Shown here one piece after another: positions 6,125 to 61,224 of a stretch of 64,000 nt of DNA. The notes below the pieces were generated by a model. The model was not told the origin of the DNA, made no database searches, and saw only the letters and a list, made by a program, of their open reading frames with translations. The stretch comes from an uncultured virus (IMG/VR IMGVR_UViG_3300037847_005438). Taxonomy: Duplodnaviria > Heunggongvirae > Uroviricota > Caudoviricetes. The DNA is taken from the IMG/VR virus record IMGVR_UViG_3300037847_005438, positions 1-64,000 of that record; one strand, 5' to 3'. Position numbers and translations under genes: made by a program. The stretch's first letter is position 1; every line of letters starts with the position of its first letter.

Positions 6125-6319
6125 ATGGCTTTTAATAAATTAAATACTTTATTTGACGAATTACAAGACGCTGTTAACGATTGTCAAACAGATGTTACGA
6201 AATTTGTTGATGGAAATAATTCCGCAGGAACGCGGGTTAGAAAAGCTATGCAGGCTATAAAGTCTCTAGCTCAAGAAGTTAGAGTTGAAGTTCAAGATCA
6301 AAAGAACAAACAATTCTAA
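6125..6319 (+). CDS. histone H1-like Hc1 family protein (Bacteroidota type)
   Basis: KFVDGNNSAGTRVRKAMQAIK motif. Confidence 0.75.
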   Translation: MAFNKLNTLFDELQDAVNDCQTDVTKFVDGNNSAGTRVRKAMQAIKSLAQEVRVEVQDQKNKQF

Positions 6320-28937: not shown

Positions 28938-31900
28938 TTAATAAGGACTACTACCTGAACCACTACCACTACCACTACCACTACTACTAGTACTACTAGC
29001 ACTACTACTACTACCACTACCACCACCACTACCACTAATAAAATTAGATTGTTTTGATAAAACTACACCTAAACCTTGAACACTAAAATCTTCTAAATTA
29101 ATCATGTAAGGAAATGACGCTTGTGGAACTGTAGCGTAAATTCCAGCGGTCGCACTTACAACACCAGTTATATTACTAAACCATTTACCTTCTTTACTTT
29201 TAAACTCTAATATCTGAGCAGCTTGACCTTCGTTTTCTTTAAAATGACTTTTTGATCCACTGTTGTTTCTTATAATATCTGCATACCAACCATTAACACC
29301 AATAGAAGTTCCGTCTTCCCAGTCATTAGTAATAATATGTGTTGCGCCATCTATGACTTCCTCTGAATTTTCGTAATACCTTCTTGATAAACTTCCCTCA
29401 TAATTTAACGTGTGAAAAGTTTTTACTATAGAAGGTTCATCGTTAAAAATAGTTGTAACATGAGATGGTGTAAATTCGTTATAAAAAGTATTATAACCGT
29501 TATTTAGGCTTGCTGTATAATGTTCATATAATTTACCATCTAGTATTGTAAAGTATTTATTAGAAACACTAATACCGTTTTCAGGTATAAATGATTTAAA
29601 ACTTACCCAACCTTTGTTTTCTTCATTAAAACTTATTGTTTTTTCATCATACGGAACCATTTGGCTTACCGTCTGGAGATAAGTTGGAGAGTTTACGTCT
29701 GTGTCAAAGTAGGATTCAGTAGTGTATAAAGCCTTTTGCATGAAAAAGTTGTCTACTTCACCTTCAACTGGTCCTTCTAATATTTGTACAACAAAAGTAT
29801 TTAGTAATTCTCCTCCAAAGTGATCTATAGCTGTACCAGTTGTACCGTTTTCAGATTGCCAATTTAAAGCTCCACTATCATTAATTTCAGTTCCATTTTC
29901 ACCAACGCGGTGTATTTTATCATAAACACCAGTAGGGTTTGTGTCATCAAAACTAATAACGTCTGTTCTAAAGCCTTTGTTAGAACTACCTTCTGACGTA
30001 AAGTAATATATTCTAATTCTTCCAGACGTTAAGCTGTAATTAAATCTTATTCTATAATAACTAGATGGTTTTATTCTTTTATTTATAACTTGTCTTATTT
30101 CTGTAAAATCTGGAGCATCATTAAGTTTTATTTGATTATTTTCAAAGAATATATATTGTGCTGCCTGCAAGTCAAAACCTATAAACTCCCAGTAATCAAC
30201 AGATCCACCTGTTATAAAATTTGATCTATCAATTAATCTTAGGTCAGACAAATCGCAAGTCATCAAAACTGGAGGGGTAGATGATGCATTACTTGTATAC
30301 AAGTTGTCATTTCTAAAACTTATACTATTTTTATTAGGAGCCGCATCTTGATGTGTTTCATTTAACCAATTAGTACTAGGTGTATACGGTTGTTCATTTT
30401 TAGTTATAGAATTTATAGTACCATCAAAATTAAAATCTGTTTTATAAATACCATCTTCGTCAATATACATAGTTAATTTATAACCACTATCAACACTACC
30501 ACCAGGATTGCTTGCAAAATAAAGATCACTTCTAAGCTGTATTTTTAATGTGTCACCTGAGTGATTGTCTACTCTAATTCTAAACTCATAACCATCTACA
30601 GATGGCTTGACACTAATAGGTGTTGATAATGATGAAAAATCTTGTAAAAATATTTGCCCAGGCGCGGTAGCATCTACAAATCTTACTTTATCTCCTTCTA
30701 AAAACAATCTTCTTTGCGAAAAAGCGTGTGGCGTCATAGCGTCATCACCACCACCATAATCTGGTAATTTCCAAGTGGTAGGTGTAGGTGAGGTTGACCA
30801 AACTACATTTTGACCACTGTTATAATCCATACTAAAACTATCAACACTACCACCAGTTTCTCTTTCTGAAATATCCCTAACATTTATTATATCAATTTTA
30901 CCACTAAAATTATAAAATTGTAATCTTAATCTACCATCATTGTTTTGTACGTTATAACTGTCAGGATGTATTTTTACAACAGCTCTATACAACACAGAGT
31001 TGGCAGGCGCAGCTCCATTTGCATAATAACCATTAGATTCTATAGGTATTAAATTATAACCATGTAATTCATTCCAATTTGAATAATCTATTGGACTTAA
31101 TAATATAAAACCTCTGTCATCACCAGGGCTAGTATTATTGTTAGTAGGATTGTTTATAGAACCAAAAGTACCATAAGGTATATTGCTATCATAAAAATTT
31201 TGTGTATCAAAATGACCAGAACCACTAACGTTAACACCTGGTTCAATTAAGCCTCTTGCTAATATACCTGTATTTGAAGGAGGGCTGTGAAGAACAGGAT
31301 CAATAACAACAACATCTATCATAACCCATTTATCAGCAGTTCTTAATAAAGGTATATCAGCAGTATGCGTTATATAAACACTACCAGTAGTTGTTCTTGA
31401 ATCTATTTCTATTTTATCAGATCCATTGTTAATAACACCGTCAGCTTGATCACCTGGAACTATAACTCCATTTGGATTTGGATCATCCCAAGTGTGAACC
31501 GTACCGTTATCATCTGTCATAGAAGTTTGATTTATTACAGGGTTTTCTTGACCAAATTGATTTATTGCTTCTATGTGTTTAGTTGCAAATTGATCGCCAG
31601 ACTGAAAGGTAAGATTCCAAGAAGACGAAGTAAAATCGTGAGAAACTTCAGTCCAAGCAGGTACAGTAGCTGGTGGAATATCACCAAATGTTGGTATTGC
31701 AGGTTGGCCAGTATAATAAATACTATTAAAAGAAAGTATTTTTTCAACTTTTGCACTTGCTAATCTCATTGGTTTTTGAAAACTTTCACCAGGTTTATTT
31801 GTGTTTTTTACTCTGAACTTTAAGTCTTGAACAGCAATACCTTGATGTACATTTAAATTAGCCGCTAAACTACTCGCTGATCTTCTAAATTTAACGTAAA

Positions 31901-34900
31901 AAGTTAATCTCGCAACACCAAGCGAAGCATTAATACTATCTAAGGCAAGTGCTTGCTGAGAATGGTTACTACCACTACCATTCCAAGTTACAGTGTTACC
32001 ACTAACAAAACCTAAATGAAATTGAGTGTTAGTTTGGACCGTGCCAGGGTATCCTGGATTAAAATTATGACCTTCTATTTGGTTTTGCGCTAAAGAATAT
32101 TTATTAACAAAAGGAGTTGTTCCTGAAGACGCTGTCCCAAATGCTTTTCCGCCTTGTCTAAATATTTTATCACTATCAACAGGAGTATTACCATCACAAA
32201 TTATAATTTGAGGTACACAATAATTTGATGTTGAAGTACCACCGGCTTCTACTTCTATTGTAACTTTAAATTCTTCACCATAAAAAGCTGTTAAGTTGTT
32301 TGCGCTATCATAAGCACCTATTGTTTCACCATTTGTAAAACCTGGATTCCAACTAGATTGTATGTTCCAAGCTGGATTATTAGAATTCCAAGAAGATACA
32401 GTTGATTCTACAAGATTAGTTGGCATTGTACCTGAAGTATGTGTAAATGGAAATAAAGCATACTTAGTCTCACTACCAGATACAAGATTGCTACCTGCTG
32501 CAAAAACTAAACCAGCATAAGCATCAGACCCACCAAAAAAACCGTCTTGATCATCAAATATACTACCAATAAGATTACTATTTAAAAGTGGCATTTCGAA
32601 CCAAGTGGTGTTAACACCAATAGTTTCGTGATAGGATTTGTTATCATTATATACTTGAGCTGTTTGATTAGCAACTGATCTAGCCCAAACATAACCGTCA
32701 CCAAAAAAATCAACAGTTGGATCATTATGAAAAGGACCACTAGTACCGTAATTAACAGCTGTTGTTTGCCCAGTGCTAACGCCAGAAGGTGCAGACGTAA
32801 AATTATGATCAAATATTGTTTTTGTAGTAGTGTCAAAACCTACAAAAGATTCAGCTACAAATGGTTGTCCAGTTTGAGCTTGTTGGTACTGCCCTTGAGG
32901 TATAGCCGCGTAGTTAGTTACAGTTGTTTGACTATCTAAATGTCTAAGCGTAACTTCAGGAATATTGTTATAAGAAGAACTATTTACACTATTTACACGT
33001 ATTTCGGTTTGATTAATTTGAGTTCCAGAAGCAAAACTACCATTTTCAATAACATTACTAGCGCTAGGCGTTAAATTAATTAACTCTTCACCAGCTGTTA
33101 TAAATGAGTTTCTTAATAAATTTTGTGTAAAGTTATTTGTAAAAGTAATATTATATTCTTTTTTATACTCATCATATGTACCAACTAATTCATTTGGAAT
33201 TTTTAAATTATCTCTAAACCAATCACGCATACCAATATTTGATATAGGTGTTAATCCATCCATAGACAATCTAAGAACCGCGCCTCTTTGTTTATCTGTG
33301 AAATAAGCTCTATAAGATTCTGAGGCAAAACTTTCTGGGTTTTTTGATATACCGTAATCACCAACAAAAGGTGTTGCTGTACCTAAAACCTTATTAGACG
33401 CGATTAATTGTGGATTACCATCCGCATTAAATAGTGTATCTTTACCAGCTACTATATCTACTATTCTATCTTCACAAAAAGCAACCAATCCAACTCTTCT
33501 TTGAAATAACTTTTGTATACTACCGTAAGTTGGGTTTAAGTCTTTTGTTATTTTTTCAGCCATTATAAACTGATTAAGATCGTTTACACTAACGTCAGCA
33601 TTGTATATACCAGAATAAATTAAACCATTTGTCCTTGTTTCTTCTTGATAATTAGATTCTAAAGTAGAAGATACTATTGGTCCTTTTGATATAGTCATTT
33701 CGTTAAAACCATCTCTTATTCTATTTGATTCAATACCATTACCAAAAGAAAAACAATTATACCAACTCAATCCAACTTCTAAATCTCTACCTATATTTGA
33801 ATCTATATAAAACCTTGTTCTTAACGTACTAGTGCTAGTAAGTGGTGATCCACTACTAAGTGTTCCTGCTCCTAAAGTGTTACTAGGATCTGATGGTTGT
33901 GCTGATAGTAAAGCTGTAGTGTAGCTACCATCTTTCCTATAAAACCTAACTTTAGTATTAGAATAATCAATTTCATCGTTAGCATTGTCTAAAAATTGCC
34001 AACCTGGTTTTATTTCAAACTCATTTTTACTTATCCATCTAGTAATAACGCTACCAGTATAATTATAATTTAAGTTTTCAACTCTACAACCTACAGGAGC
34101 AAATATTTCACAAGTATTATCGTTAAGCTTAATAGGTATAACATCGCTAGCTTCGTGATATATATCTAAATCAATACTTTCTTTTGGCTCTGTTTCCCAA
34201 ATTATAGGTTGCTCAGAATTTACCTCTATAAAACTAGTTGCTTGTTCTATAAATTGAATAGCAGAACTAGTATCAAGATCTATATTAGTACCGTCTACAG
34301 GATTGTATGTTGAGCTTTTTGGATTTTTATCTACTTCTATTATATAACAAAGTCTTCTATTGTTAGCTCTACCAAAATCTCTAATAGTATCTTTAGCATG
34401 AGCAAGCTTGTCATCGTTACCACCACTTGAACCATCAGGTACATGGTTTCCATCAGAATCTACAGTGTCAGCCCAATCCATTACAGCTTTTTCGACAGAA
34501 TCAGAACCTTGATCGTATAACCAAGGTGTGGATCCACCCCAATATAATTGTTTTTTCCAACCGGTGTGGTTGTATAGTTTTTTTATTGAAACTTTTTTTA
34601 TAGTATAAATTTCTTCATTTGAATCAGCTTCAAATTTAAATTGTTTACCAATTTTTAAATTATCTATAAAACTTTGTATTTCTTTAGCATTTTCATTACT
34701 TTTTTTCCAAGTTGGATTCCATTGGTTTTCGTGTCTTTCTTTATATCTTTCATCATAACCAAAAGAATTTTTTACACCTGGACCTGGTGCTTCGTTTGTT
34801 GATTCATCAAACTTAACCGCTTCACCGTTAAAAGCCATTTCAACTGTATCTCCAATACCGTCCTCATAATCTGTTTTACCTTCCATAGGGACTACTATTT

Positions 34901-37900
34901 GATCATCGTTTGCACCAAATACAGCTCCATCATCTTTAGTAAAAACACCACCACCCCAAATACCTTGTAAGCCATTAGCAATAGAATTATTACCAGGAGA
35001 TATAGAATCACCCATGCCAGATGTTGAGTCAACTAAATCTTCACCTGGAGCTAAAATTGACAAGTGTATAAAAAACCTACCAGTTTCTTTTTCTTCACCA
35101 TAAGTATTATCAGGATTTAAATGAGCTTTGTACATGCCCACACCAGGTGCATATTCTTTTTTCCATCTTCTAATACCTATACCGTTACCATAACCAGCTT
35201 GATCATTATAAAAAAGATCTTTATAAGGTTTATCTGTATGAGTAAGATCACTTGTTATAACACCTTCTAAACCGTTAACGGCGTAGCTACTATCATTTGT
35301 ATTATCATTGTACCATTGACCACTAGCGTGTTTTGGGAATTTCCATCCAAATTTATAACCCCACTGAGAGCCTAATCTATTAGCAGCTGCTACAACAACA
35401 CTAGAAAAACCTTCTCCAGCTTTTGCTATTAAACTTGTTCTTCTACCATCCCATATTGGATTTTCTGGATATTCTACATGTATGCCTTGCCAAATTTGAC
35501 CAGAATTTTTAGCATAGTTATCACCACATATTTGTCCAGCTTGCATATACATCGCATCAATAAAAAAGTTACTGTCTCCAATTTCACTTTTTACTTGGCT
35601 CCAGTATGATGGTCGATCTGTTAACTGGTGCCCGTGAAGTTCTTCTGGTGAGTCAGTACCACCAGTTGGTACACTTGTGTTTGTAGAGTTAACAAGACCT
35701 TCATTCATATTAGAACCAGAGTATACTTTATCCGCAGCATAAAAACAAGGTCTTCTAGCTGATATAACGTAATCACTAAGAATATCCGTGTTTGAATCTA
35801 ATATACTACTTTTTAATATTGGATCGCTAAAAACTTTAACAAAAAACTTACCACTAAAGTTTTCATTATTTTTTTCTCTTCTTTGTTCTATTTGAAAAGA
35901 AACATTTGCATTTAAACTAGTAGTGCTACCAGCAGTACCTGTAGATATAAAATGATCTTCTCTACTAATAGGTTTTTCAATTTTTAATCTTACAACATCA
36001 CTAACAACATTTGCATCTATTATTTTGTATTTATTAGAATATGCAATACCATTATCAATCTCTCTATTCCAAGACATATACATATTGCCTTTTAAATAAT
36101 CTTTATCACCACTCCACTCACCGCTACCACCCCCAGCTAAAACAGCGCCGTCACAATTTGCACCTGTCCATGCTAATGTATCAATTTCAATAACAGTTTT
36201 TCCTCTAGTTGGTCTAGCGTCTGCGTTAGTAAATATACTACCTAAAACACCTACCACTTCCCTATTGTTAGCAACACCCATTGAAAAATATTCAAATTTA
36301 ACAAAGTCTGGGGCTTCGTTTTGTATATCTATAACTTTAAATCTATTTTTATCTAAGACCTGTGTTTGGCCGCTACCTATTTTCTTTTTTAGTATTATGT
36401 AATCATCTTCTTTTATTTTATTTCTTTCTGCTGAAGGAAAAGACAACCATAAAGTGTGTTGCATTTCATTTAGTGTCATATCATGAGGAAGATATGCTTT
36501 TTCCATTATTAAATTATAATATTCACCAGAAGTTTCTTTTACAAAATATTTTATATATTCAGCAAAACTAGGTGGATCTTTTTCTAATTTAGCTTCTATT
36601 TGATTTGTTTGATTCGCTGATATAACACCTGAAAAACTTTTCCAAGGAACACGAACCGCACTTTTACTAGATGTAAATACTGGTGTTTCTCTACCATACT
36701 TATCACCAAAAACTACACCTACTTGATAATTTCTTTGAGACTTTATAGATGGTAATCCACCATCTTCAAAATTACTATGCGGTAATAAATAGCTACCTCT
36801 ATTTTTATAAGTGGCTATTAAATTTGGTATTGATGTTTCAGGATTATAACCTTGAGTATAATTACCATAAACAACTCTATTACTAGTTATTTCTTGAGAT
36901 AATGCTTTTCTAGGTAAATTATCCCAAGGTCTTAATGTTTGGTTTTCTGGCAAAGCAGCTCTTATATTTTCTGAATCAACTATATATCTACCTTTATGGC
37001 CGTCACCTAAGTGGTTAGTTACAACGCCACCAGCGTTACTCCCACTAGACCATTTTCTACGCGCCAAAGGTATATCACCTTGAAAAGTTCCAGCAGCATG
37101 GAACTCGTCGTCTGTATACTTTATATTTGCAATAACGTAAACAACGTTAGAATTTTCTTGTTTATACAATATATCAACTTGCACAACATCAGAAAGCGTA
37201 TCTGGTAAAATAAAATTAGAAAGCTCTATAGATTTTATTTTATTTACCATAGAAGTATTTGTTGCTTCTTGCGCATTGTATACAAAACCTAAACTATTTT
37301 TTTCGTTTTGTGGATTAAAAATAACATCTGTATATGGCGCAATTGCTGAATATTGATTGTCAATATATTTGTATCTATAAGAAAATCTAGGAAATATTTT
37401 TTCAAATATAGGATCGTCAGACTTGTTTGATGTAGTATTTATTTTTACATCTAACTTTTTACTTGGTTTTTTTCTTATAGCAATTATATGTTCTTCTGTT
37501 ATATCTTCAGTTACATTGTCACCAAAAAAAACATCACCAACAGCAACTTCATCATAATTAGGACCGGGTGCAGCTCTTCGCATTGTCGGTCCCATTTTCC
37601 AACCGGTACTGTTATGTTGCCCATGGAAAATTGCAAATCTTCCTCTATATATTTCTTCTCCGTTTCTATATTGTATAGCGTCAACATCATAATTGTTTGG
37701 GCTAAAAAGACCTTGTGGATTTGCAAAGCTTATATTAAAAGTTTTTTCAATATCTTTTAAATGAAACTTACCGTATCTACCAACTTGACCTTTTAATGTA
37801 AATTCATCACCAGTTATAAGTTCACCTGTAATAGGGTGAGTATCACCACCAGAACTTGCGTCGTTTGGACGATTAAAAACAGATGTTATTGTAGTTCCAT

Positions 37901-38438
37901 GAAAACTTCCTTTTTCAAAACTTAGTTGAGTATGACTACCGTTTACTAATGCATCTATAGGTGTACCATCAATACATCTTTGTATATCTATTCTTCTAGG
38001 CTCATTAACACCATCTGTCCAAAGTAATAAGTTATTTATTATATTTATACCTGTTATTATTTTATTTGGAAACTTTAAAACAGCTTCAGGTGTACCTACT
38101 TTAGTATCAACTAAAACAGGTATAATACCATATTCAATAGAGTACTCTAATATAGCTTCAAAATTAGTATGGTTAGCATTAAACTCTCTTTTTACAAACC
38201 AATATAATTTATCATTTTTTTCGTCAGCAATAGCACCAATACATTTACAATCACTAGGAACTAAATTACCAGATACTAAAGAATTACCTAGTATATTTTG
38301 AACAGTACCAACATCAGAACCTTCGGATGTAGTTACTTGAATATTCATAGCGTCTCTATATTCACCCTTAGGAATAAGTCTCTCGTCCAGATCCTTATTC
38401 ATTCTAGCTTTTAAAAAAGTATTCTTAATCTCCGGCAT
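28938..38438 (-). CDS. tail nozzle/muzzle (stabilisation) protein with large insertions, 3166 aa
   Basis: N-terminal RMNKDLDERLIPKGEYRDAMNI; core YGISKNPESFA...YFTDKQRGAVLRLSMDGLTPIS; follows the ring proteins. Confidence 0.75.
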   Translation of the reverse strand: MPEIKNTFLKARMNKDLDERLIPKGEYRDAMNIQVTTSEGSDVGTVQNILGNSLVSGNLVPSDCKCIGAIADEKNDKLYWFVKREFNANHTNFEAILEYSIEYGIIPVLVDTKVGTPEAVLKFPNKIITGINIINNLLLWTDGVNEPRRIDIQRCIDGTPIDALVNGSHTQLSFEKGSFHGTTITSVFNRPNDASSGGDTHPITGELITGDEFTLKGQVGRYGKFHLKDIEKTFNISFANPQGLFSPNNYDVDAIQYRNGEEIYRGRFAIFHGQHNSTGWKMGPTMRRAAPGPNYDEVAVGDVFFGDNVTEDITEEHIIAIRKKPSKKLDVKINTTSNKSDDPIFEKIFPRFSYRYKYIDNQYSAIAPYTDVIFNPQNEKNSLGFVYNAQEATNTSMVNKIKSIELSNFILPDTLSDVVQVDILYKQENSNVVYVIANIKYTDDEFHAAGTFQGDIPLARRKWSSGSNAGGVVTNHLGDGHKGRYIVDSENIRAALPENQTLRPWDNLPRKALSQEITSNRVVYGNYTQGYNPETSIPNLIATYKNRGSYLLPHSNFEDGGLPSIKSQRNYQVGVVFGDKYGRETPVFTSSKSAVRVPWKSFSGVISANQTNQIEAKLEKDPPSFAEYIKYFVKETSGEYYNLIMEKAYLPHDMTLNEMQHTLWLSFPSAERNKIKEDDYIILKKKIGSGQTQVLDKNRFKVIDIQNEAPDFVKFEYFSMGVANNREVVGVLGSIFTNADARPTRGKTVIEIDTLAWTGANCDGAVLAGGGSGEWSGDKDYLKGNMYMSWNREIDNGIAYSNKYKIIDANVVSDVVRLKIEKPISREDHFISTGTAGSTTSLNANVSFQIEQRREKNNENFSGKFFVKVFSDPILKSSILDSNTDILSDYVISARRPCFYAADKVYSGSNMNEGLVNSTNTSVPTGGTDSPEELHGHQLTDRPSYWSQVKSEIGDSNFFIDAMYMQAGQICGDNYAKNSGQIWQGIHVEYPENPIWDGRRTSLIAKAGEGFSSVVVAAANRLGSQWGYKFGWKFPKHASGQWYNDNTNDSSYAVNGLEGVITSDLTHTDKPYKDLFYNDQAGYGNGIGIRRWKKEYAPGVGMYKAHLNPDNTYGEEKETGRFFIHLSILAPGEDLVDSTSGMGDSISPGNNSIANGLQGIWGGGVFTKDDGAVFGANDDQIVVPMEGKTDYEDGIGDTVEMAFNGEAVKFDESTNEAPGPGVKNSFGYDERYKERHENQWNPTWKKSNENAKEIQSFIDNLKIGKQFKFEADSNEEIYTIKKVSIKKLYNHTGWKKQLYWGGSTPWLYDQGSDSVEKAVMDWADTVDSDGNHVPDGSSGGNDDKLAHAKDTIRDFGRANNRRLCYIIEVDKNPKSSTYNPVDGTNIDLDTSSAIQFIEQATSFIEVNSEQPIIWETEPKESIDLDIYHEASDVIPIKLNDNTCEIFAPVGCRVENLNYNYTGSVITRWISKNEFEIKPGWQFLDNANDEIDYSNTKVRFYRKDGSYTTALLSAQPSDPSNTLGAGTLSSGSPLTSTSTLRTRFYIDSNIGRDLEVGLSWYNCFSFGNGIESNRIRDGFNEMTISKGPIVSSTLESNYQEETRTNGLIYSGIYNADVSVNDLNQFIMAEKITKDLNPTYGSIQKLFQRRVGLVAFCEDRIVDIVAGKDTLFNADGNPQLIASNKVLGTATPFVGDYGISKNPESFASESYRAYFTDKQRGAVLRLSMDGLTPISNIGMRDWFRDNLKIPNELVGTYDEYKKEYNITFTNNFTQNLLRNSFITAGEELINLTPSASNVIENGSFASGTQINQTEIRVNSVNSSSYNNIPEVTLRHLDSQTTVTNYAAIPQGQYQQAQTGQPFVAESFVGFDTTTKTIFDHNFTSAPSGVSTGQTTAVNYGTSGPFHNDPTVDFFGDGYVWARSVANQTAQVYNDNKSYHETIGVNTTWFEMPLLNSNLIGSIFDDQDGFFGGSDAYAGLVFAAGSNLVSGSETKYALFPFTHTSGTMPTNLVESTVSSWNSNNPAWNIQSSWNPGFTNGETIGAYDSANNLTAFYGEEFKVTIEVEAGGTSTSNYCVPQIIICDGNTPVDSDKIFRQGGKAFGTASSGTTPFVNKYSLAQNQIEGHNFNPGYPGTVQTNTQFHLGFVSGNTVTWNGSGSNHSQQALALDSINASLGVARLTFYVKFRRSASSLAANLNVHQGIAVQDLKFRVKNTNKPGESFQKPMRLASAKVEKILSFNSIYYTGQPAIPTFGDIPPATVPAWTEVSHDFTSSSWNLTFQSGDQFATKHIEAINQFGQENPVINQTSMTDDNGTVHTWDDPNPNGVIVPGDQADGVINNGSDKIEIDSRTTTGSVYITHTADIPLLRTADKWVMIDVVVIDPVLHSPPSNTGILARGLIEPGVNVSGSGHFDTQNFYDSNIPYGTFGSINNPTNNNTSPGDDRGFILLSPIDYSNWNELHGYNLIPIESNGYYANGAAPANSVLYRAVVKIHPDSYNVQNNDGRLRLQFYNFSGKIDIINVRDISERETGGSVDSFSMDYNSGQNVVWSTSPTPTTWKLPDYGGGDDAMTPHAFSQRRLFLEGDKVRFVDATAPGQIFLQDFSSLSTPISVKPSVDGYEFRIRVDNHSGDTLKIQLRSDLYFASNPGGSVDSGYKLTMYIDEDGIYKTDFNFDGTINSITKNEQPYTPSTNWLNETHQDAAPNKNSISFRNDNLYTSNASSTPPVLMTCDLSDLRLIDRSNFITGGSVDYWEFIGFDLQAAQYIFFENNQIKLNDAPDFTEIRQVINKRIKPSSYYRIRFNYSLTSGRIRIYYFTSEGSSNKGFRTDVISFDDTNPTGVYDKIHRVGENGTEINDSGALNWQSENGTTGTAIDHFGGELLNTFVVQILEGPVEGEVDNFFMQKALYTTESYFDTDVNSPTYLQTVSQMVPYDEKTISFNEENKGWVSFKSFIPENGISVSNKYFTILDGKLYEHYTASLNNGYNTFYNEFTPSHVTTIFNDEPSIVKTFHTLNYEGSLSRRYYENSEEVIDGATHIITNDWEDGTSIGVNGWYADIIRNNSGSKSHFKENEGQAAQILEFKSKEGKWFSNITGVVSATAGIYATVPQASFPYMINLEDFSVQGLGVVLSKQSNFISGSGGGSGSSSSASSTSSSGSGSGSGSGSSPY
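28945..29037. repeat. (CTA/CCA) microsatellite-like tract encoding a Ser/Gly tail
   Basis: ccactaccactaccacta...; translates to SGSGGGSGSSSSASSTSSSGSGSGSGSGSS. Confidence 0.8.
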
Positions 38439-53211: not shown

Positions 53212-53469
53212 TTAATCTACTAAAACAACGTCACCATCACGAATAACTCTATAAAGAGTGTCTTTCCATGACATGTCGTGTCCAGCATGTTTATCGTAGT
53301 ATATCGTGTCACCATCTTTTAATCCTTCGACTAAATTACCACACGATATTATTTTTGCTTTTATATAACGATTGTCTACATCTGTATCATCCGTCATTAT
53401 AAGACCAGCAACCTTTTTAGGCTCTGTCTTTATTTTATCTACTATTATATATCTATTAATTGCCTTCAT
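53212..53469 (-). CDS. groES: co-chaperonin GroES
   Basis: MKAINRYIIV...AGLIM...LKDGDTIYY...VIRDGDVV; overlaps the groEL end. Confidence 0.8.
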   Translation of the reverse strand: MKAINRYIIVDKIKTEPKKVAGLIMTDDTDVDNRYIKAKIISCGNLVEGLKDGDTIYYDKHAGHDMSWKDTLYRVIRDGDVVLVD

Positions 53470-55018
53470 TCATCCTCATATTTGAAATTACACAATCTGC
53501 AGATATAATTGTTGAAACTACACTTACTGCGTTTTTAAGTGCAGACTTAGTTACAAGTACAGGGTCAATAATACCAGCTTCAATCATATCAGCTTCTTCA
53601 CCTGTTACAACGTCTACACCTAAACCTTTTTTTGGTCTTGGTTCTACTTGCTCTAAACCAGCATTTTCAAGTACAGTGTGAAAAGGTGCTGTAATAGCTT
53701 TAAATAGTATTTTTTCACCTACCGCGTCAGCGGTTAAATTTTGTGAAGCATTTAATAGTGCTACACCACCACCTGGCACTATACCTTCTTTAAGTGCAGC
53801 TTTAGTAGCATATATTGCATCTTCAACTCTATCTTTCTTTTCTTTCATCTCAACTTTAGAGTTAGCCCCTACTTTTACAATACCAACACTACCTGATAAC
53901 ATGGCTAATCTTTGTCGATGTTTCTTTTGTATAAACGGGTTTTTATCCCATTTGTCTATAGTTTTCTTAATACTCTCAATTCGCTCTTCCATTTGCTCTT
54001 CTGGAGTATCTATAGTTAACACAGTGTTTTTATCATCTGTAATAGCCGTATGCGCTTCACCTAAACAATCTATAGTTATAAGATCTAAATCATCACCTAA
54101 TTGTTCATTTATAACTTTAGCACCAACAAGAAAAGCTAAGTCTTCAACTGTATCTTGTTTAGTGGGACCAAAGCCTGGTAAGTCAACTATATTAACTTTT
54201 ATATTACCTTTTACTTTATTCATAAGAAGCGCAGCTTTAACCTGCTGTTCAACTGGAGCAACAATCAGTAATGATCTTTTGTTTTTTATTACATGCTCTA
54301 ATATTGTTTGTATTCTTCTTATGTTTGGTATTTCTGAACTAACGATTAATACTAACGGATTATCAAGTTCACAAACTTGTTTATCTTTATCAGTAACGAA
54401 ATGTGGTGATGTAAGTCCTGAATCTATTTGTACACCATCTACAACTTCAACATATGTCTCTTCAGTTGGTGACTCTTCCATTAATACCACACCATCTTTA
54501 CCTACTTTAGTATAAGCTTCTGCTATAATCTTTCCTAGCTCTGCATCATTATTACAACTAATTGAACTAACAGATTCCAGCATATCGCCCTCGATCTTGA
54601 CAGAAATCTTATTTAGGTAATCATTTACCTTTTTAAGACCGGAGTTTATCCCATCTTTTATTGTTCTAATAGCTTCATTGCTATTATTTACTTCTTTTAA
54701 CAAAGATTCAGCAAGGACGGTAGCTGTAGTAGTACCGTCACCTGCTTCTCTTACTGTATTTCTTGCAGCTTCTTTAATAAGGGTAGCCCCCATATTTTCA
54801 ACCGGGTCAAATAAGACAACAGATTCTGCTACTGTTACACCGTCTTTAGTTATGACCGGGAGTCCTCTGGCGTCTTCGTAAATCACGCACTTTCCAGATG
54901 CTCCTAAGGTTGATTTTACTGCTTTTGCGAGCTTTTCTACGCCCGTAATTACCTTTTTTTTAGCAAAATCGCCAAAATTCACGTCTTTGACAATCTCGCT
55001 AGGCTGATTGTATTCCAT
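53456..55018 (-). CDS. groEL: chaperonin GroEL
   Basis: ITKDGVTVA, AGDGTTTATVLA, GIVPGGGVAL, GIIDPVLV; lacks the GGM tail. Confidence 0.97.
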   Translation of the reverse strand: MEYNQPSEIVKDVNFGDFAKKKVITGVEKLAKAVKSTLGASGKCVIYEDARGLPVITKDGVTVAESVVLFDPVENMGATLIKEAARNTVREAGDGTTTATVLAESLLKEVNNSNEAIRTIKDGINSGLKKVNDYLNKISVKIEGDMLESVSSISCNNDAELGKIIAEAYTKVGKDGVVLMEESPTEETYVEVVDGVQIDSGLTSPHFVTDKDKQVCELDNPLVLIVSSEIPNIRRIQTILEHVIKNKRSLLIVAPVEQQVKAALLMNKVKGNIKVNIVDLPGFGPTKQDTVEDLAFLVGAKVINEQLGDDLDLITIDCLGEAHTAITDDKNTVLTIDTPEEQMEERIESIKKTIDKWDKNPFIQKKHRQRLAMLSGSVGIVKVGANSKVEMKEKKDRVEDAIYATKAALKEGIVPGGGVALLNASQNLTADAVGEKILFKAITAPFHTVLENAGLEQVEPRPKKGLGVDVVTGEEADMIEAGIIDPVLVTKSALKNAVSVVSTIISADCVISNMRMNEGN

Positions 55019-56633: not shown

Positions 56634-56661
56634 CACTTGTTTTTAGGATATTATAAATATT

Positions 56662-56757
56662 GGGGTATAGTGCTGCGCCCCCCTCCCGGGGACCCGGCTC
56701 CCCCCAAAAATGATTTGCGAAAGCCCCACGGGCCCCTACGGCCAGTGATTTGCCGTA
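56662..56757. other. GC-rich non-coding island at the divergent strand switch (candidate genome end/packaging site or origin)
   Basis: C-tracts, TGATTTGC twice, TACGGC/GCCGTA hairpin in an otherwise AT-rich genome. Confidence 0.55.
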
Positions 56758-56883
56758 AACTTTTTACGTTTTGCTGGCTAGCCCCTATATACTAAATGTT
56801 TTTTTACACAAACTAGTTTAGTGTACAGTTAGATAATATATATGTAACTAAAATAAAATATTAACTAACTAAATAATTAAATT

Positions 56884-57982: not shown

Positions 57983-57993
57983 TTAGTTAGACT

Positions 57994-58069
57994 AGTCGAG
58001 GTGTGCACTTACGGTACTAATAATAGTATCTTGGACGGAAACGGTAATTAGTGTACACCTCTACTTTTT
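57994..58069 (+). terminator. branched stem-loop, terminator or small structured RNA
   Basis: 12-bp stem GAGGTGTGCACT/AGTGTACACCTC enclosing hairpin GGTACTA-ATAA-TAGTATC; followed by a T-run. Confidence 0.55.
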
Positions 58070-59543: not shown

Positions 59544-59589
59544 CACAAATTAAATTAAATTAGTAACAGATAATATAATAAAATCAAAT

Positions 59590-60349: not shown

Positions 60350-60393
60350 TATGGGAAAACAAAACGAAAAACTACTAAAAAATATAGAATTAT

Positions 60394-60531
60394 ATGAGCA
60401 AAAAAAGAAAGCTGAACAGCAAAAATCCAAAATACTGGGACAAAAGCCAGATAACCGAAAAACCAATAGCAAAGAAAAAGCTAATGTGTGAAACTAAAGG
60501 TGTTAAAATATATGGAATATGGTACGCTTAG
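60394..60531 (+). CDS. 45-aa basic protein (absent from ORF track)
   Basis: MSKKRKLNSKNPKYWDKSQITEKPIAKKKLMCETKGVKIYGIWYA; an alternative frame 60351-60491 overlaps it. Confidence 0.5.
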   Translation: MSKKRKLNSKNPKYWDKSQITEKPIAKKKLMCETKGVKIYGIWYA

Positions 60532-60552
60532 TAGTCATATGGCCTAGTTAAT

Positions 60553-60768
60553 ACGAGGTGAGGGTGGTAGCGCGTGAGACGTGTAGCAGAGGAACGTGGG
60601 TTGAAATTACCTGGTGCACAAAATAATACGTTCTAATAATATCTGCATCTTACTCACTTGGCAGAACGGCAGGATAAAGCAAATATAAGGAAGAACAAAG
60701 ATCGAGCAGGTACAATTTAAAATACCAAGGAGTCGAGCCTTATAAGAACCACACCTGCCCGACCTCGT
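60553..60768 (+). ncRNA. candidate multi-helix structured non-coding RNA (~216 nt)
   Basis: Intergenic, GC-enriched, with a closing helix and two arms of nested complementary segments (see findings); strand inferred from context. Confidence 0.65.
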
Positions 60769-60822
60769 TTTATCACAAATTAAAATAGAAGTAAAATAGA
60801 TAATATAATAAAATTAAATACA

Positions 60823-61224
60823 ATGACAGAAAACGAATTATTACTAAAAATTGAAGGCTTAGAAAAAGCTATCAAAGAACATCAAGACTTTGTTAATACG
60901 TATGGTAATACGTTAACAACTACTAAACAAGAACTAGTTGACTTACACAAACCAGAGTTAACTACATCTCAAATGGAAGCTATTGAACGTGCTGTGGAAC
61001 AAGCTGTTAATGAGTTTGATTTTACAGATACAGATAACTATGAAATAGATTATAGTCTTGACTATGATAATAGAGTACAATGTGAATCACATGAGTTTAT
61101 TAATGAAAGTGATTTAGTTGAAATGATAGTTAACAGAGTGTGTAAATTATTCAAAGAAGTTGAAGAGTTAGACACAACAGAACCTGACCATCATAAAGTT
61201 ACTCACGTAGAAAAAATTATATAA
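60823..61224 (+). CDS. acidic hypothetical protein
   Basis: ORF after motif copy 8. Confidence 0.7.
   Translation: MTENELLLKIEGLEKAIKEHQDFVNTYGNTLTTTKQELVDLHKPELTTSQMEAIERAVEQAVNEFDFTDTDNYEIDYSLDYDNRVQCESHEFINESDLVEMIVNRVCKLFKEVEELDTTEPDHHKVTHVEKII

Follow-up and report, generated by a model that had tools for sequence, protein, structure and literature searches.

The large structured RNAs ROOL and GOLLD are found in phages and prophages, measure ~500 to 800 nucleotides (nt), often lie beside tRNA genes, and are both represented in Rfam; we know of no function or protein partner for either, and to our knowledge neither has been described as a small invariant pseudoknot with optional, swappable arms. 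The H-type pseudoknot aptamers preQ1-II, SAM-II/SAM-V, and guanidine-III reside in the 5' leaders of defined gene sets; their helices covary, and an A-rich strand can lie in a helix groove. The put RNAs, such as that of HK022, which acts on RNA polymerase, are two simple stem-loops just downstream of promoters, and ToxI-type RNAs are tandem 34- to 45-nt repeats beside a toxin gene. Here, we describe an element at positions 60553 to 60768 of a 64,000-nt stretch of DNA (the window) from an uncultured virus of the Caudoviricetes. The window is the first 64 kb of the 66.9-kb IMG/VR record IMGVR_UViG_3300037847_005438, which CheckV rates as complete. An initial annotation, made from the letters of the window, had proposed a novel structured noncoding RNA with two long arms and a possible pseudoknot. 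The claim of a structured RNA is borne out: the element is conserved in at least 125 distinct copies, and its closing helix covaries. It is well supported, on comparative grounds, as a previously uncatalogued family of structured noncoding RNA that is strongly constrained and shared by many uncultured marine Flavobacteria phages.

The RNA family, its core, and its arms

Six related loci were found via two neighboring proteins (50 to 87% identical); five carry a related noncoding stretch, and the sixth is cut off at the protein. An alignment of relatives contains three nearly invariant blocks separated by two regions that vary in both length and sequence. A pattern scan with the 3' block found 24 loci in viral contigs, 23 of them true and 1 a GC-rich chance match. 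The middle block combined with CCTGCCC matched at least 120 loci in metagenome contigs, with 107 true copies and 13 chance matches in GC-rich coding DNA among the matches listed; ACCAC(A/G), at a position that the pattern left free, precedes CCTGCCC in 107 of the 120 metagenome matches listed. After pooling and de-duplication, the viral and marine metagenome copies form a set of at least 125 distinct full elements, to which all counts out of 125 refer.

The shared core of ~60 nt reads GGGUGGU ... ACGGCAGGAUAAAGC ... ACCAC(R)CCUGCCC. The general form of the element is P1(5') - 1 to 4 nt - GGGUGGU - arm 1 or UUA - AACGGCAGGAUAAAGC(A/G)AA - arm 2 or nothing - (N)GA-ACCAC-(A/G)-CCUGCC-C-(N) - P1(3'), where P1 is the closing helix. 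Within P1, two further helices are proposed, S1 (GUGGU/ACCAC) and S2 (GGCAGG/CCUGCC). A natural minimal form that has neither arm is ~63 nt long (L014), and the whole element reaches at most ~290 nt. GGGTGGT is exact in 119 of 122 distinct copies, though most search patterns left this block free, and only its second G varies, being A in L303 and C in L112. In more than 120 variants, ~35 positions of the core do not change, whereas P1 and the arms drift. The layout initially proposed thus stands in part: the closing and pseudoknot helices make up an essential short core, but the two long arms are dispensable, interchangeable decorations.

Pairing in P1 was counted in columns anchored on the core and compared with 500 row shuffles and with registers slid by 1 to 3 positions. 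These anchor-based columns were used for family-wide statistics because our covariance model R1, built from forms that lack arm 1, misaligns the copies that have it, aligning them only from the 3' half of the arm onward. P1 pairs in 813 of 875 cells (92.9%), versus a mean of 736.6 and a maximum of 757 in the shuffles and 387 to 469 in the slid registers. Every one of the seven P1 pairs occurs as at least three standard pair types (at one pair, C-G 91, A-U 17, and U-A 6, for example), and replacements of the whole helix are seen, among them GAGAGAG/CUCUCUU, GUAAAAGGU/ACCUUUUAC, and GUAAUUGAGGU/ACCUCAAUUAU. Pair counting in two alignments of arm 1-less forms gave 96.2% and 97.5% pairing, which none of 500 shuffles reached, with changes on both sides at four of the seven pairs in the first alignment and at three of the seven in the second. 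RNAalifold predicts P1 and S2 together de novo. The covariation suggested as a check by the initial annotation is therefore present in P1, and we conclude from the comparison of copies that this closing helix is real. G-U pairs are common in it (9, 11, and 5 cells at three pairs, for example); read from the opposite strand, these pairs would turn into A-C mismatches, and the molecule that folds is therefore the plus strand, in the sense of the flanking genes.

S2 is invariant except in two copies: L145 has GGCGGG, which keeps a G-U pair, and L336 has AGUAGG/CCUACU, with two double compensatory changes. Three viral scans with S1 or S2 left free, seeking more variants, returned canonical copies and chance matches only, and a corrected pattern scan found L336 as the single S2 variant. 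The pairing of S1 is supported because both of its strands are invariant though most search patterns left them free, and because the variable positions (the second G of GGGUGGU and the A/G between ACCAC and CCUGCC) flank the helix exactly. RNAfold prefers nested GGG-CCC pairings on minimal forms, against which the placement of these flanking positions argues. We infer that S1 crosses S2, yielding an H-type pseudoknot. That S1 and S2 are nearly invariant when P1 and the arms are free to drift suggests direct readout of the core nucleotides, whether by a protein, a ligand, or tertiary contacts. In the window, the closing and crossing helices, together with GGCAGG/CCTGCC, lie exactly where the initial annotation had placed them (Table 1), as do the arm 1 helices GTGAG (60574)/CTCAC (60653), GCAGA (60586)/TCTGC (60642), and GAACGT (60592)/ACGTTC (60628) and the arm 2 helix TATAAGG (60684)/CCTTATA (60738); for the crossing helix, it is the two sequences that are confirmed, and the pseudoknot itself is deduced. 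Taken together, comparative sequence analysis establishes the fold, the conservation, and the strand of the element.

A folding energy no better than that of shuffled controls was among the results that the initial annotation named as refuting it. The window's element has a minimum free energy of -51.3 kcal/mol (z -0.77), which 43 of 200 shuffles equal or surpass; z values for single-sequence folding of four minimal relatives run from -0.5 to -2.1. Folding is therefore no better than in shuffled controls, but the comparative data outweigh this result: given the nearly invariant core, the covarying P1, and the free arms, the region is more than chance despite its folding energy.

Both arms behave as modules. 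Arm 1, which can be up to 140 nt long, is replaced by 3 to 4 nt in 36 of the 125 copies; arm 2, with a maximum of 107 nt, is shrunk to 5 to 6 nt in three. We count 84 distinct versions of arm 1 and 84 of arm 2. The arms' closing helices covary as well (GUAGU/ACUAC, GUACGUG/CACGUAC, GAUAACAC/GUGUUAUC, and GUGAG/CUCAC). The window's arm 1 is of a type with a conserved base module, and the helix adjoining this module covaries, GUGAG/CUCAC becoming GUAAG/CUUAC in L049. At least 10 hairpin modules of 29 to 56 nt serve as arm 1 or as arm 2, depending on the phage, and such modules also occur outside the element, downstream in L100 and upstream in L022. The T-loop motif was found in none of the arms searched (0/161). 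Judged by these copies, the arms are optional and interchangeable, and the core is the constant part.

Some relatives contain stretches of 400 to 900 nt without convincing open reading frames (ORFs) in which the same hairpin modules recur: L022 (minus strand, ~912-1702 in reverse-complement coordinates), L141 (1083-1974), and L100 (395-560). Within these module-built stretches, L141 has the element twice in tandem, and T-arm-like hairpins (GGTTCGACTCCCACC) also occur, none of them called as a tRNA by ARAGORN. A recombinant copy in L256 (minus strand) retains the middle and 3' blocks and, of arm 1, the 3' half; another module stands where GGGUGGU and the P1 5' strand would be.

Table 1. Parts of the element and adjacent features in the window.
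Feature	Positions	Strand	Basis or remark
P1 5' strand, ACGAGGU	60553..60559	+	Covariation
5' core block GGGUGGU; GUGGU (60564-60568) is the 5' strand of the proposed pseudoknot helix S1	60562..60568	+	
Arm 1, 97 nt, conserved base module (AGCGCGUGAGAYGUGUA ... AUCUUACUCACUUGGCAGA) and variable tip; optional insertion	60569..60665	+	
Middle core block ACGGCAGGAUAAAGCAAA; GGCAGG (60668-60673) is the S2 5' strand, followed by an A-rich single strand	60666..60683	+	
Arm 2 hairpin UAUAAGG...CCUUAUA, inner GGAAGAACAAAGAUCGAGC...GUCGAGCC module, GGUACAAUUUAAAAUACC tip; optional insertion	60684..60744	+	
3' core block AGA-ACCAC-A-CCUGCC-CG; ACCAC (60748-60752) is the S1 3' strand; CCUGCC (60754-60759) is the S2 3' strand	60745..60761	+	
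P1 3' strand, ACCUCGU	60762..60768	+	Covariation
U-run UUUU directly after P1; likely RNA 3' end, terminator-like	60768..60771	+	Putative termination
Early promoter-like motif (ACAAA-N-RATAATAT), head of the RNA's cassette	59545..59576	+	Motif scan; putative promoter role
Next early promoter-like motif (early motif 8), heads the following cassette with gene 60823-61224	60775..60806	+	Motif scan
Small basic ORF, 45 aa, MSKKRKLNSKNPKYWDKS...KGVKIYGIWYA	60394..60531	+	Overlaps conserved ORF 60351-60491; usual upstream neighbor in relatives

Searches for known families and homologues

The whole window has no match to Rfam 15 (4227 models) at gathering thresholds, in agreement with the first impression that the element fits no recognized family. 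When E values up to 10 were allowed, positions 60350 to 60900 gave only a 16-bit match to BSnc140, upstream of the element; 14 relatives, minimal forms included, gave nothing on the element at E values up to 1. The known ribozyme classes (twister, twister-sister, pistol, hatchet, hammerhead, HDV, and other Rfam 15 models) do not match it either. It is also not a tRNA or transfer-messenger RNA, in line with the initial annotation: ARAGORN called 0 genes in the window, and the tRNA-Asp genes of relatives adjoin the element and do not lie inside it.

Sequence searches beyond the family were equally negative. A DNA search of GenBank phages with positions 60480 to 60830 gave no match. A 101-nt minimal relative, searched against 50,697 GenBank phage records at E values up to 10, hit 25 records, all through chance matches of 27 to 29 nt to genes of cyanophages and Pseudomonas phages. 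When one genome per prokaryote species was scanned with a pattern, all 30 matches fell in GC-rich coding-like sequence (several ..PQDGRIK..) and none had the other core blocks, and R1 found one match in 151 Bacteroidota genomes, with an E value of 0.004 and without the core.

Several other identities were considered. Gene context speaks against a riboswitch, as downstream ORFs fall into 12 clusters (the largest with 39 of 76) and a promoter-like motif usually intervenes. A ToxI-like type III antitoxin RNA was rejected on the basis of one copy in the window's genome and in all four complete relatives and of no neighbor matching a toxin in Pfam or PHROG; no tandem-repeat search was made. A T4 gene 32-type operator would be expected beside a gene for a single-stranded DNA-binding (SSB) protein; L064 alone has an SSB-like gene (C-terminal DLPF) after the element, L014 and L008 have one before it, and other neighbors are found in the window and most relatives. 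The strand order a b [arm] c [arm] b' c' a' does not fit an HDV-like fold. Three resemblances that came to mind, of ACGGC(A/G)GGAUAAAGC to guanidine-I (ykkC), of ACGAGGU to guanidine-III, and of individual words to 5S rRNA, found no model match, and ACGAGGU is a strand of the covarying helix. A role as frameshift or read-through stimulator for the upstream ORF was dismissed because the element is also found away from ORF ends.

Literature on this RNA was not found by full-text searches with 12-nt core strings or by keywords. A survey of candidate structured RNAs in IMG/VR reports 10,006 unnamed candidates (Fremin, Bhatt and Kyrpides 2023, PMC10690425). One of these, DNAVirus_1850, is described there as 66 nt long, with 27 sequences, all marine, and one tRNA-Asp overlap; compared by description only, it could be this core or a neighbor of it. 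The part of the survey considered here contains no structure discussion, function, or name for DNAVirus_1850. The family is thus new to Rfam and may already be one unnamed entry among those candidates.

Genomic setting, transcript ends, and expression

The gene content of the window includes a primase/helicase, thymidylate synthase, MazG, a class II ribonucleotide reductase, a portal protein, a large terminase, and GroEL/GroES, the latter as a phage-encoded GroES/GroEL pair at 53212-55018 (minus strand). An Hc1-type histone-like protein is encoded at 6125-6319 (plus strand; Pfam E value, 1.8e-20). A giant ORF of 3166 aa at 28938-38438 (minus strand) matches a PHROG family annotated as virion structural protein, and a second one, of 2292 aa, matches an unnamed family. 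Because the large terminase is 45 to 64% identical to those of Flavobacterium, Cellulophaga, Tenacibaculum, and Maribacter phages, the host is very probably a marine member of Flavobacteriia; those of these phages that infect Flavobacterium, Cellulophaga, and Tenacibaculum do not have the element. Public sequencing runs in which the stretch occurs derive from marine or seawater metagenomes.

The element occupies a 291-nt gap between the end of a small ORF and the next gene (60823-61224). The absence of a long ORF and the raised GC content, both claimed initially, hold: no plus-strand ORF of at least 25 aa is present from 60531 to 60823, and GC content is 0.395 to 0.405 (200-nt windows, 60400-60699), i.e., ~0.40, versus ~0.27 to 0.33 in both flanks. 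A two-block early motif (ACAAA-N18-28-RATAATAT) has eight matches, all on the plus strand between 56808 and 60806, compared with 0.64 expected. Each copy (ACAAAYTAAAT ... RATAATAT) lies 15 to 50 nt upstream of a small early gene, so that the copies head small early cassettes, and the RNA forms the end of the cassette starting at 59545. As had been noted, the element abuts the eighth copy; the distance from its end (60768) is 6 nt, not the 5 nt given, and the T-run of the RNA ends 3 nt before the motif start at 60775. Since the motif does not fit what we take to be the Bacteroidota host promoter consensus, it may be read by a phage-specific or modified polymerase. Scans of the early region for sigma-70 promoters and simple terminators were not informatively above shuffles, and the simple terminator scan did not call the element, whose loop far exceeds 8 nt.

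Other features of this region deserve mention. The plus-strand ORFs 60351-60491 (46 aa) and 60394-60531 (45 aa), which lie in different frames, share ~100 nt, and both frames are open and conserved in many relatives (MR..EKLLKNIE.YEQKEK..QQESKILGQKP and MSKKRKLNSKNPKYWDKS..KGVKVYGVWYE); the two could be overlapping genes or the product of a programmed frameshift, and neither belongs to a known family. The small upstream ORF has no match to a Pfam family, a PHROG, or the Atlas. At 57990-58062 (plus strand), the terminator slot of an early cassette contains another structured element, a long-range hairpin (GAGGTGTGCACT ... AGTGTACACCTC) with TTTTT after it, upstream of the next early motif. The stretch 56655-56790 is far richer in GC than the rest of the 30% GC genome, with C and G runs such as CCCCCCTCCCGGGGACCCGGCTCCCCCC; it marks the point where leftward and rightward gene blocks diverge and has no ORF or Rfam match.

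Across the family, the element is single-copy in the window's genome and in 4/4 complete relatives, and one 54%-complete record holds a tandem duplicate. An upstream ORF was found for 107 elements, belonging to the overlapping small-ORF pair in 60 and to a 133-aa family in 19; in many copies, the stop codon of the small upstream ORF lies 0 to 3 nt before P1. Downstream ORFs, found for 76 elements, form 12 clusters, the largest (39) being the 133-aa family, which has no known function. A tRNA gene follows on the same strand in 7 of 125 loci (six tRNA-Asp and one tRNA-Phe), and L032 is a further case; the gap between element and tRNA is no more than 19 nt in four loci and 2 to 4 nt in three of those. 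TTT occurs within 7 nt of the P1 end in 83 of the 125 copies, versus 6.6% of random 7-mers from the same loci. Between the element and the next gene, most copies have a promoter-like motif. Four distant relatives are arranged differently: L014 and L008 have TTTG-N20-TATCTTTG, which presumably corresponds to the Bacteroidota promoter consensus, just upstream of the element and a gene start 45 nt downstream, and in L050 and L080, the element, with a U-run, lies between an upstream terminator hairpin and a gene whose ATG follows 25 nt later. Directly downstream of two U-run-less copies, L006 and L037, we observed AAATAT-ACGAGGAG..., with the same junction and a P1-like start and then different noncoding sequence, which may be a second kind of RNA cassette.

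One marine metatranscriptomic run contains contigs over the conserved blocks at word depths of 270 to 880, including relatives with other arms (one contig, at depth 442, has a different arm 2); depths over flanking genes are 13 to 520. RNA-library contigs bridge the middle and 3' blocks and cross the 3' boundary. Another joins 60550 to 60796 through 24 other letters and represents a relative that lacks the element. The RNA runs X17, X18, and X20 hold one contig each, over upstream ORFs only, and in X15, parts of the arms are uncovered, so that these runs are uninformative on absence. We regard the metatranscriptomic contigs over the core as a weak hint of transcription.

Possible functions and likeness to known systems

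Our preferred reading, held tentatively and at less than even confidence, is that the element gives rise to a stable RNA early in infection, that a conserved partner (most probably a protein of the host or the phage) binds its core specifically, and that the arms are passengers. It is well supported that the element is a stand-alone noncoding RNA cassette of the early region, the plus-strand transcript of which folds into the compact ~60-nt core; P1 encloses the proposed H-type pseudoknot of S1 and S2 with its invariant joining strands AAC and AUAAAGCAAAA, and the two optional hairpin arms, drawn from a shared pool of modules, are inserted at fixed points in the pseudoknot loops. Transcription would proceed with the early genes from the promoter-like motif at 59545 or, in some distant relatives, from the element's own Bacteroidota-type host promoter. 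The 3' end would be formed at P1 and the U-run or, where tRNA-Asp follows within 2 to 19 nt, presumably by an RNase P cut. The RNA might then persist as a stable small RNA, its invariant core binding one conserved partner with high affinity (RNA polymerase, a ribonuclease, or a defense protein being the most likely), and act as a decoy, sponge, or cofactor early in infection. That the core is recognized by a partner is proposed because the helix sequences themselves are invariant while P1 and the arms change. The cassette is independent: its neighbors vary, it is single-copy in complete genomes, it is missing from one relative's junction, and it has its own promoter-like motif in L014 and L008.

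Several observations weigh against the stable, partner-bound early RNA. Single-sequence folding energy is unremarkable, both in the window and in the four minimal relatives. S1 never varies, which leaves the pseudoknot without covariation support, and the support for S2 comes from one divergent sequence, L336. The U-run is missing in 42 of 125 copies, and one RNA-library contig continues past the element's 3' end (60750-60820), which means that some molecules extend beyond the U-run. In L014, L008, L050, and L080, the position 25 to 45 nt upstream of a gene resembles that of a cis regulator. The expression data consist of assembled Logan contigs from one RNA library, which are blind to strand, to ends, and to RNA versus DNA, and whose depth does not rank genes. 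Finally, all copies come from one group of related marine phages, and part of the invariance could reflect the recent spread of a mobile cassette.

The U-run and the position between genes also bear on two readings in which termination is central. In the one, which we consider unlikely, the element is a conditional terminator: a small ligand or protein would stabilize the pseudoknot, closing S2 and P1 into a 13-bp GC-rich stack before the U-run and blocking read-through from the upstream cassette or the element's own promoter into the next gene, and transcription would read on in the unliganded state. The excess of U-runs after P1 over background (83/125 versus 6.6%) fits such a switch, as does the 3' strand CCUGCCC-N-ACCUCG, which is unbroken up to the U-run; so do the gene orders of L050 and L080 (terminator, element with U-run, ATG 25 nt on) and of L014 and L008 (promoter, element, gene 45 nt on), and the window's element occupies the slot where other early cassettes have a long hairpin and T-run (e.g., 57996-58062). 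An invariant single-stranded core of ~35 nt is typical of the ligand pockets of riboswitches and counts in the same direction. On the other hand, the 12 clusters of downstream genes amount to no single family, a separate promoter-like motif stands between element and next gene in most copies, a third of the copies (42/125) have no U-run, some precede a tRNA or long noncoding DNA, no riboswitch family in Rfam matches, and freely swapping arms of up to 140 nt are unusual for aptamers. The other reading, a passive structure without a specific partner, would make the element an elaborate intrinsic terminator and/or a 3' cap that shields early mRNAs from 3' exonucleases. It draws on the terminator slot between the last ORF of the cassette and the next promoter-like motif, on P1 with a U-run in two-thirds of the copies, and on the compact pseudoknotted fold, and yet ~35 invariant nt would be needless for a passive hairpin, and the core is fixed while P1 and the arm helices drift. 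One relative has neither the element nor any hairpin at the same junction, and there are copies without a U-run, copies upstream of tRNA genes, and copies in 5' leaders; we judge a purely passive role improbable.

A catalytic role is likewise hard to credit. A new self-cleaving or otherwise catalytic RNA would process the early transcript, freeing the RNA from the abutting upstream ORF or helping to release an adjoining tRNA. The element fits the profile of the twister, pistol, hatchet, and HDV-like ribozymes in its small, highly conserved core with a pseudoknot, its peripheral stems, which vary freely, and its occurrence in DNA of phages and metagenomes and sometimes beside tRNAs; this counts for catalysis, and where the upstream ORF ends 0 to 3 nt before P1, as in many copies, a separate RNA would need processing. 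Set against these points, Rfam 15 holds no matching ribozyme even at permissive thresholds, the strand order is unlike that of the HDV fold, and contigs from RNA libraries extend from the middle block into the 3' block and across the 3' boundary, though contigs cannot exclude cleavage. Very unlikely, in our estimate, is a selfish or DNA-level element, in which the core would be a recombination, homing, or protein-binding DNA site, or the whole a benefit-free mobile cassette of RNA modules, with the arm modules as small mobile hairpins. Pairing in P1 and in the arm helices survives compensatory and G-U changes that work for the plus strand only, a sign that a folded transcript is under selection; the neighbors include no transposase, integrase, or homing endonuclease, and complete genomes have a single copy. 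These observations contend with a variable position in the early region, presence in some close relatives and absence from others, tandem duplicates in one record, the recombinant remnant without its 5' half (L256), and the occurrence of the same hairpin modules in either arm and outside the element.

A broader reading, possible though doubtful, is that the pseudoknot, whether it binds a ligand or protein or is a new ribozyme, represents a new functional class of RNA and at the same time a docking scaffold for shared autonomous hairpin modules, which marine Flavobacteriia phages would shuffle between both sites and other noncoding RNAs as a modular RNA toolkit for host takeover. The early regions of phages are the seat of host takeover and counterdefense functions, nearly all known ones of which are proteins. 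A core that bound a host protein or a metabolite, or that had catalytic activity, would add a new class of RNA to these. The free exchange of hairpin modules between two sites and into other noncoding stretches is an unusual mode of RNA evolution. The phage group is abundant in the sea, its RNA is unlike any curated family, and the minimal natural variant, at ~63 nt, is short enough to be studied directly by biochemical and structural methods.

Measured against the systems introduced above, the element shares individual traits with each. It comes from the same data source (IMG/VR) as the candidates of the survey PMC10690425. Like ROOL and GOLLD, it is phage-borne, structured, and sometimes beside tRNA genes, but with a core of ~60 nt and a total of at most ~290 nt, it is far from their ~500 to 800 nt, and it has no Rfam match. 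With the twister, pistol, hatchet, and HDV-like ribozymes, it has in common its size, pseudoknots, a conserved core with optional stems, and occurrence in phages and metagenomes; it differs in lacking any sequence or structure match to them in the Rfam search. Its compact pseudoknot, A-rich strand, nearly invariant core, and hairpin in a loop recall preQ1-II, SAM-II/SAM-V, and guanidine-III, whereas its variable neighbors, its nearly invariant S1 and S2 sequences, and the failure of any model to score set it apart from them. Unlike the put and ToxI RNAs, it occurs as one copy per genome, with no repeat array and no toxin-like neighbor seen, given that tandem repeats were not searched for; like HK022 put RNA and the pseudo-ToxI mimics, it is a small folded phage RNA under sequence constraint, for which we propose early expression and a protein partner.

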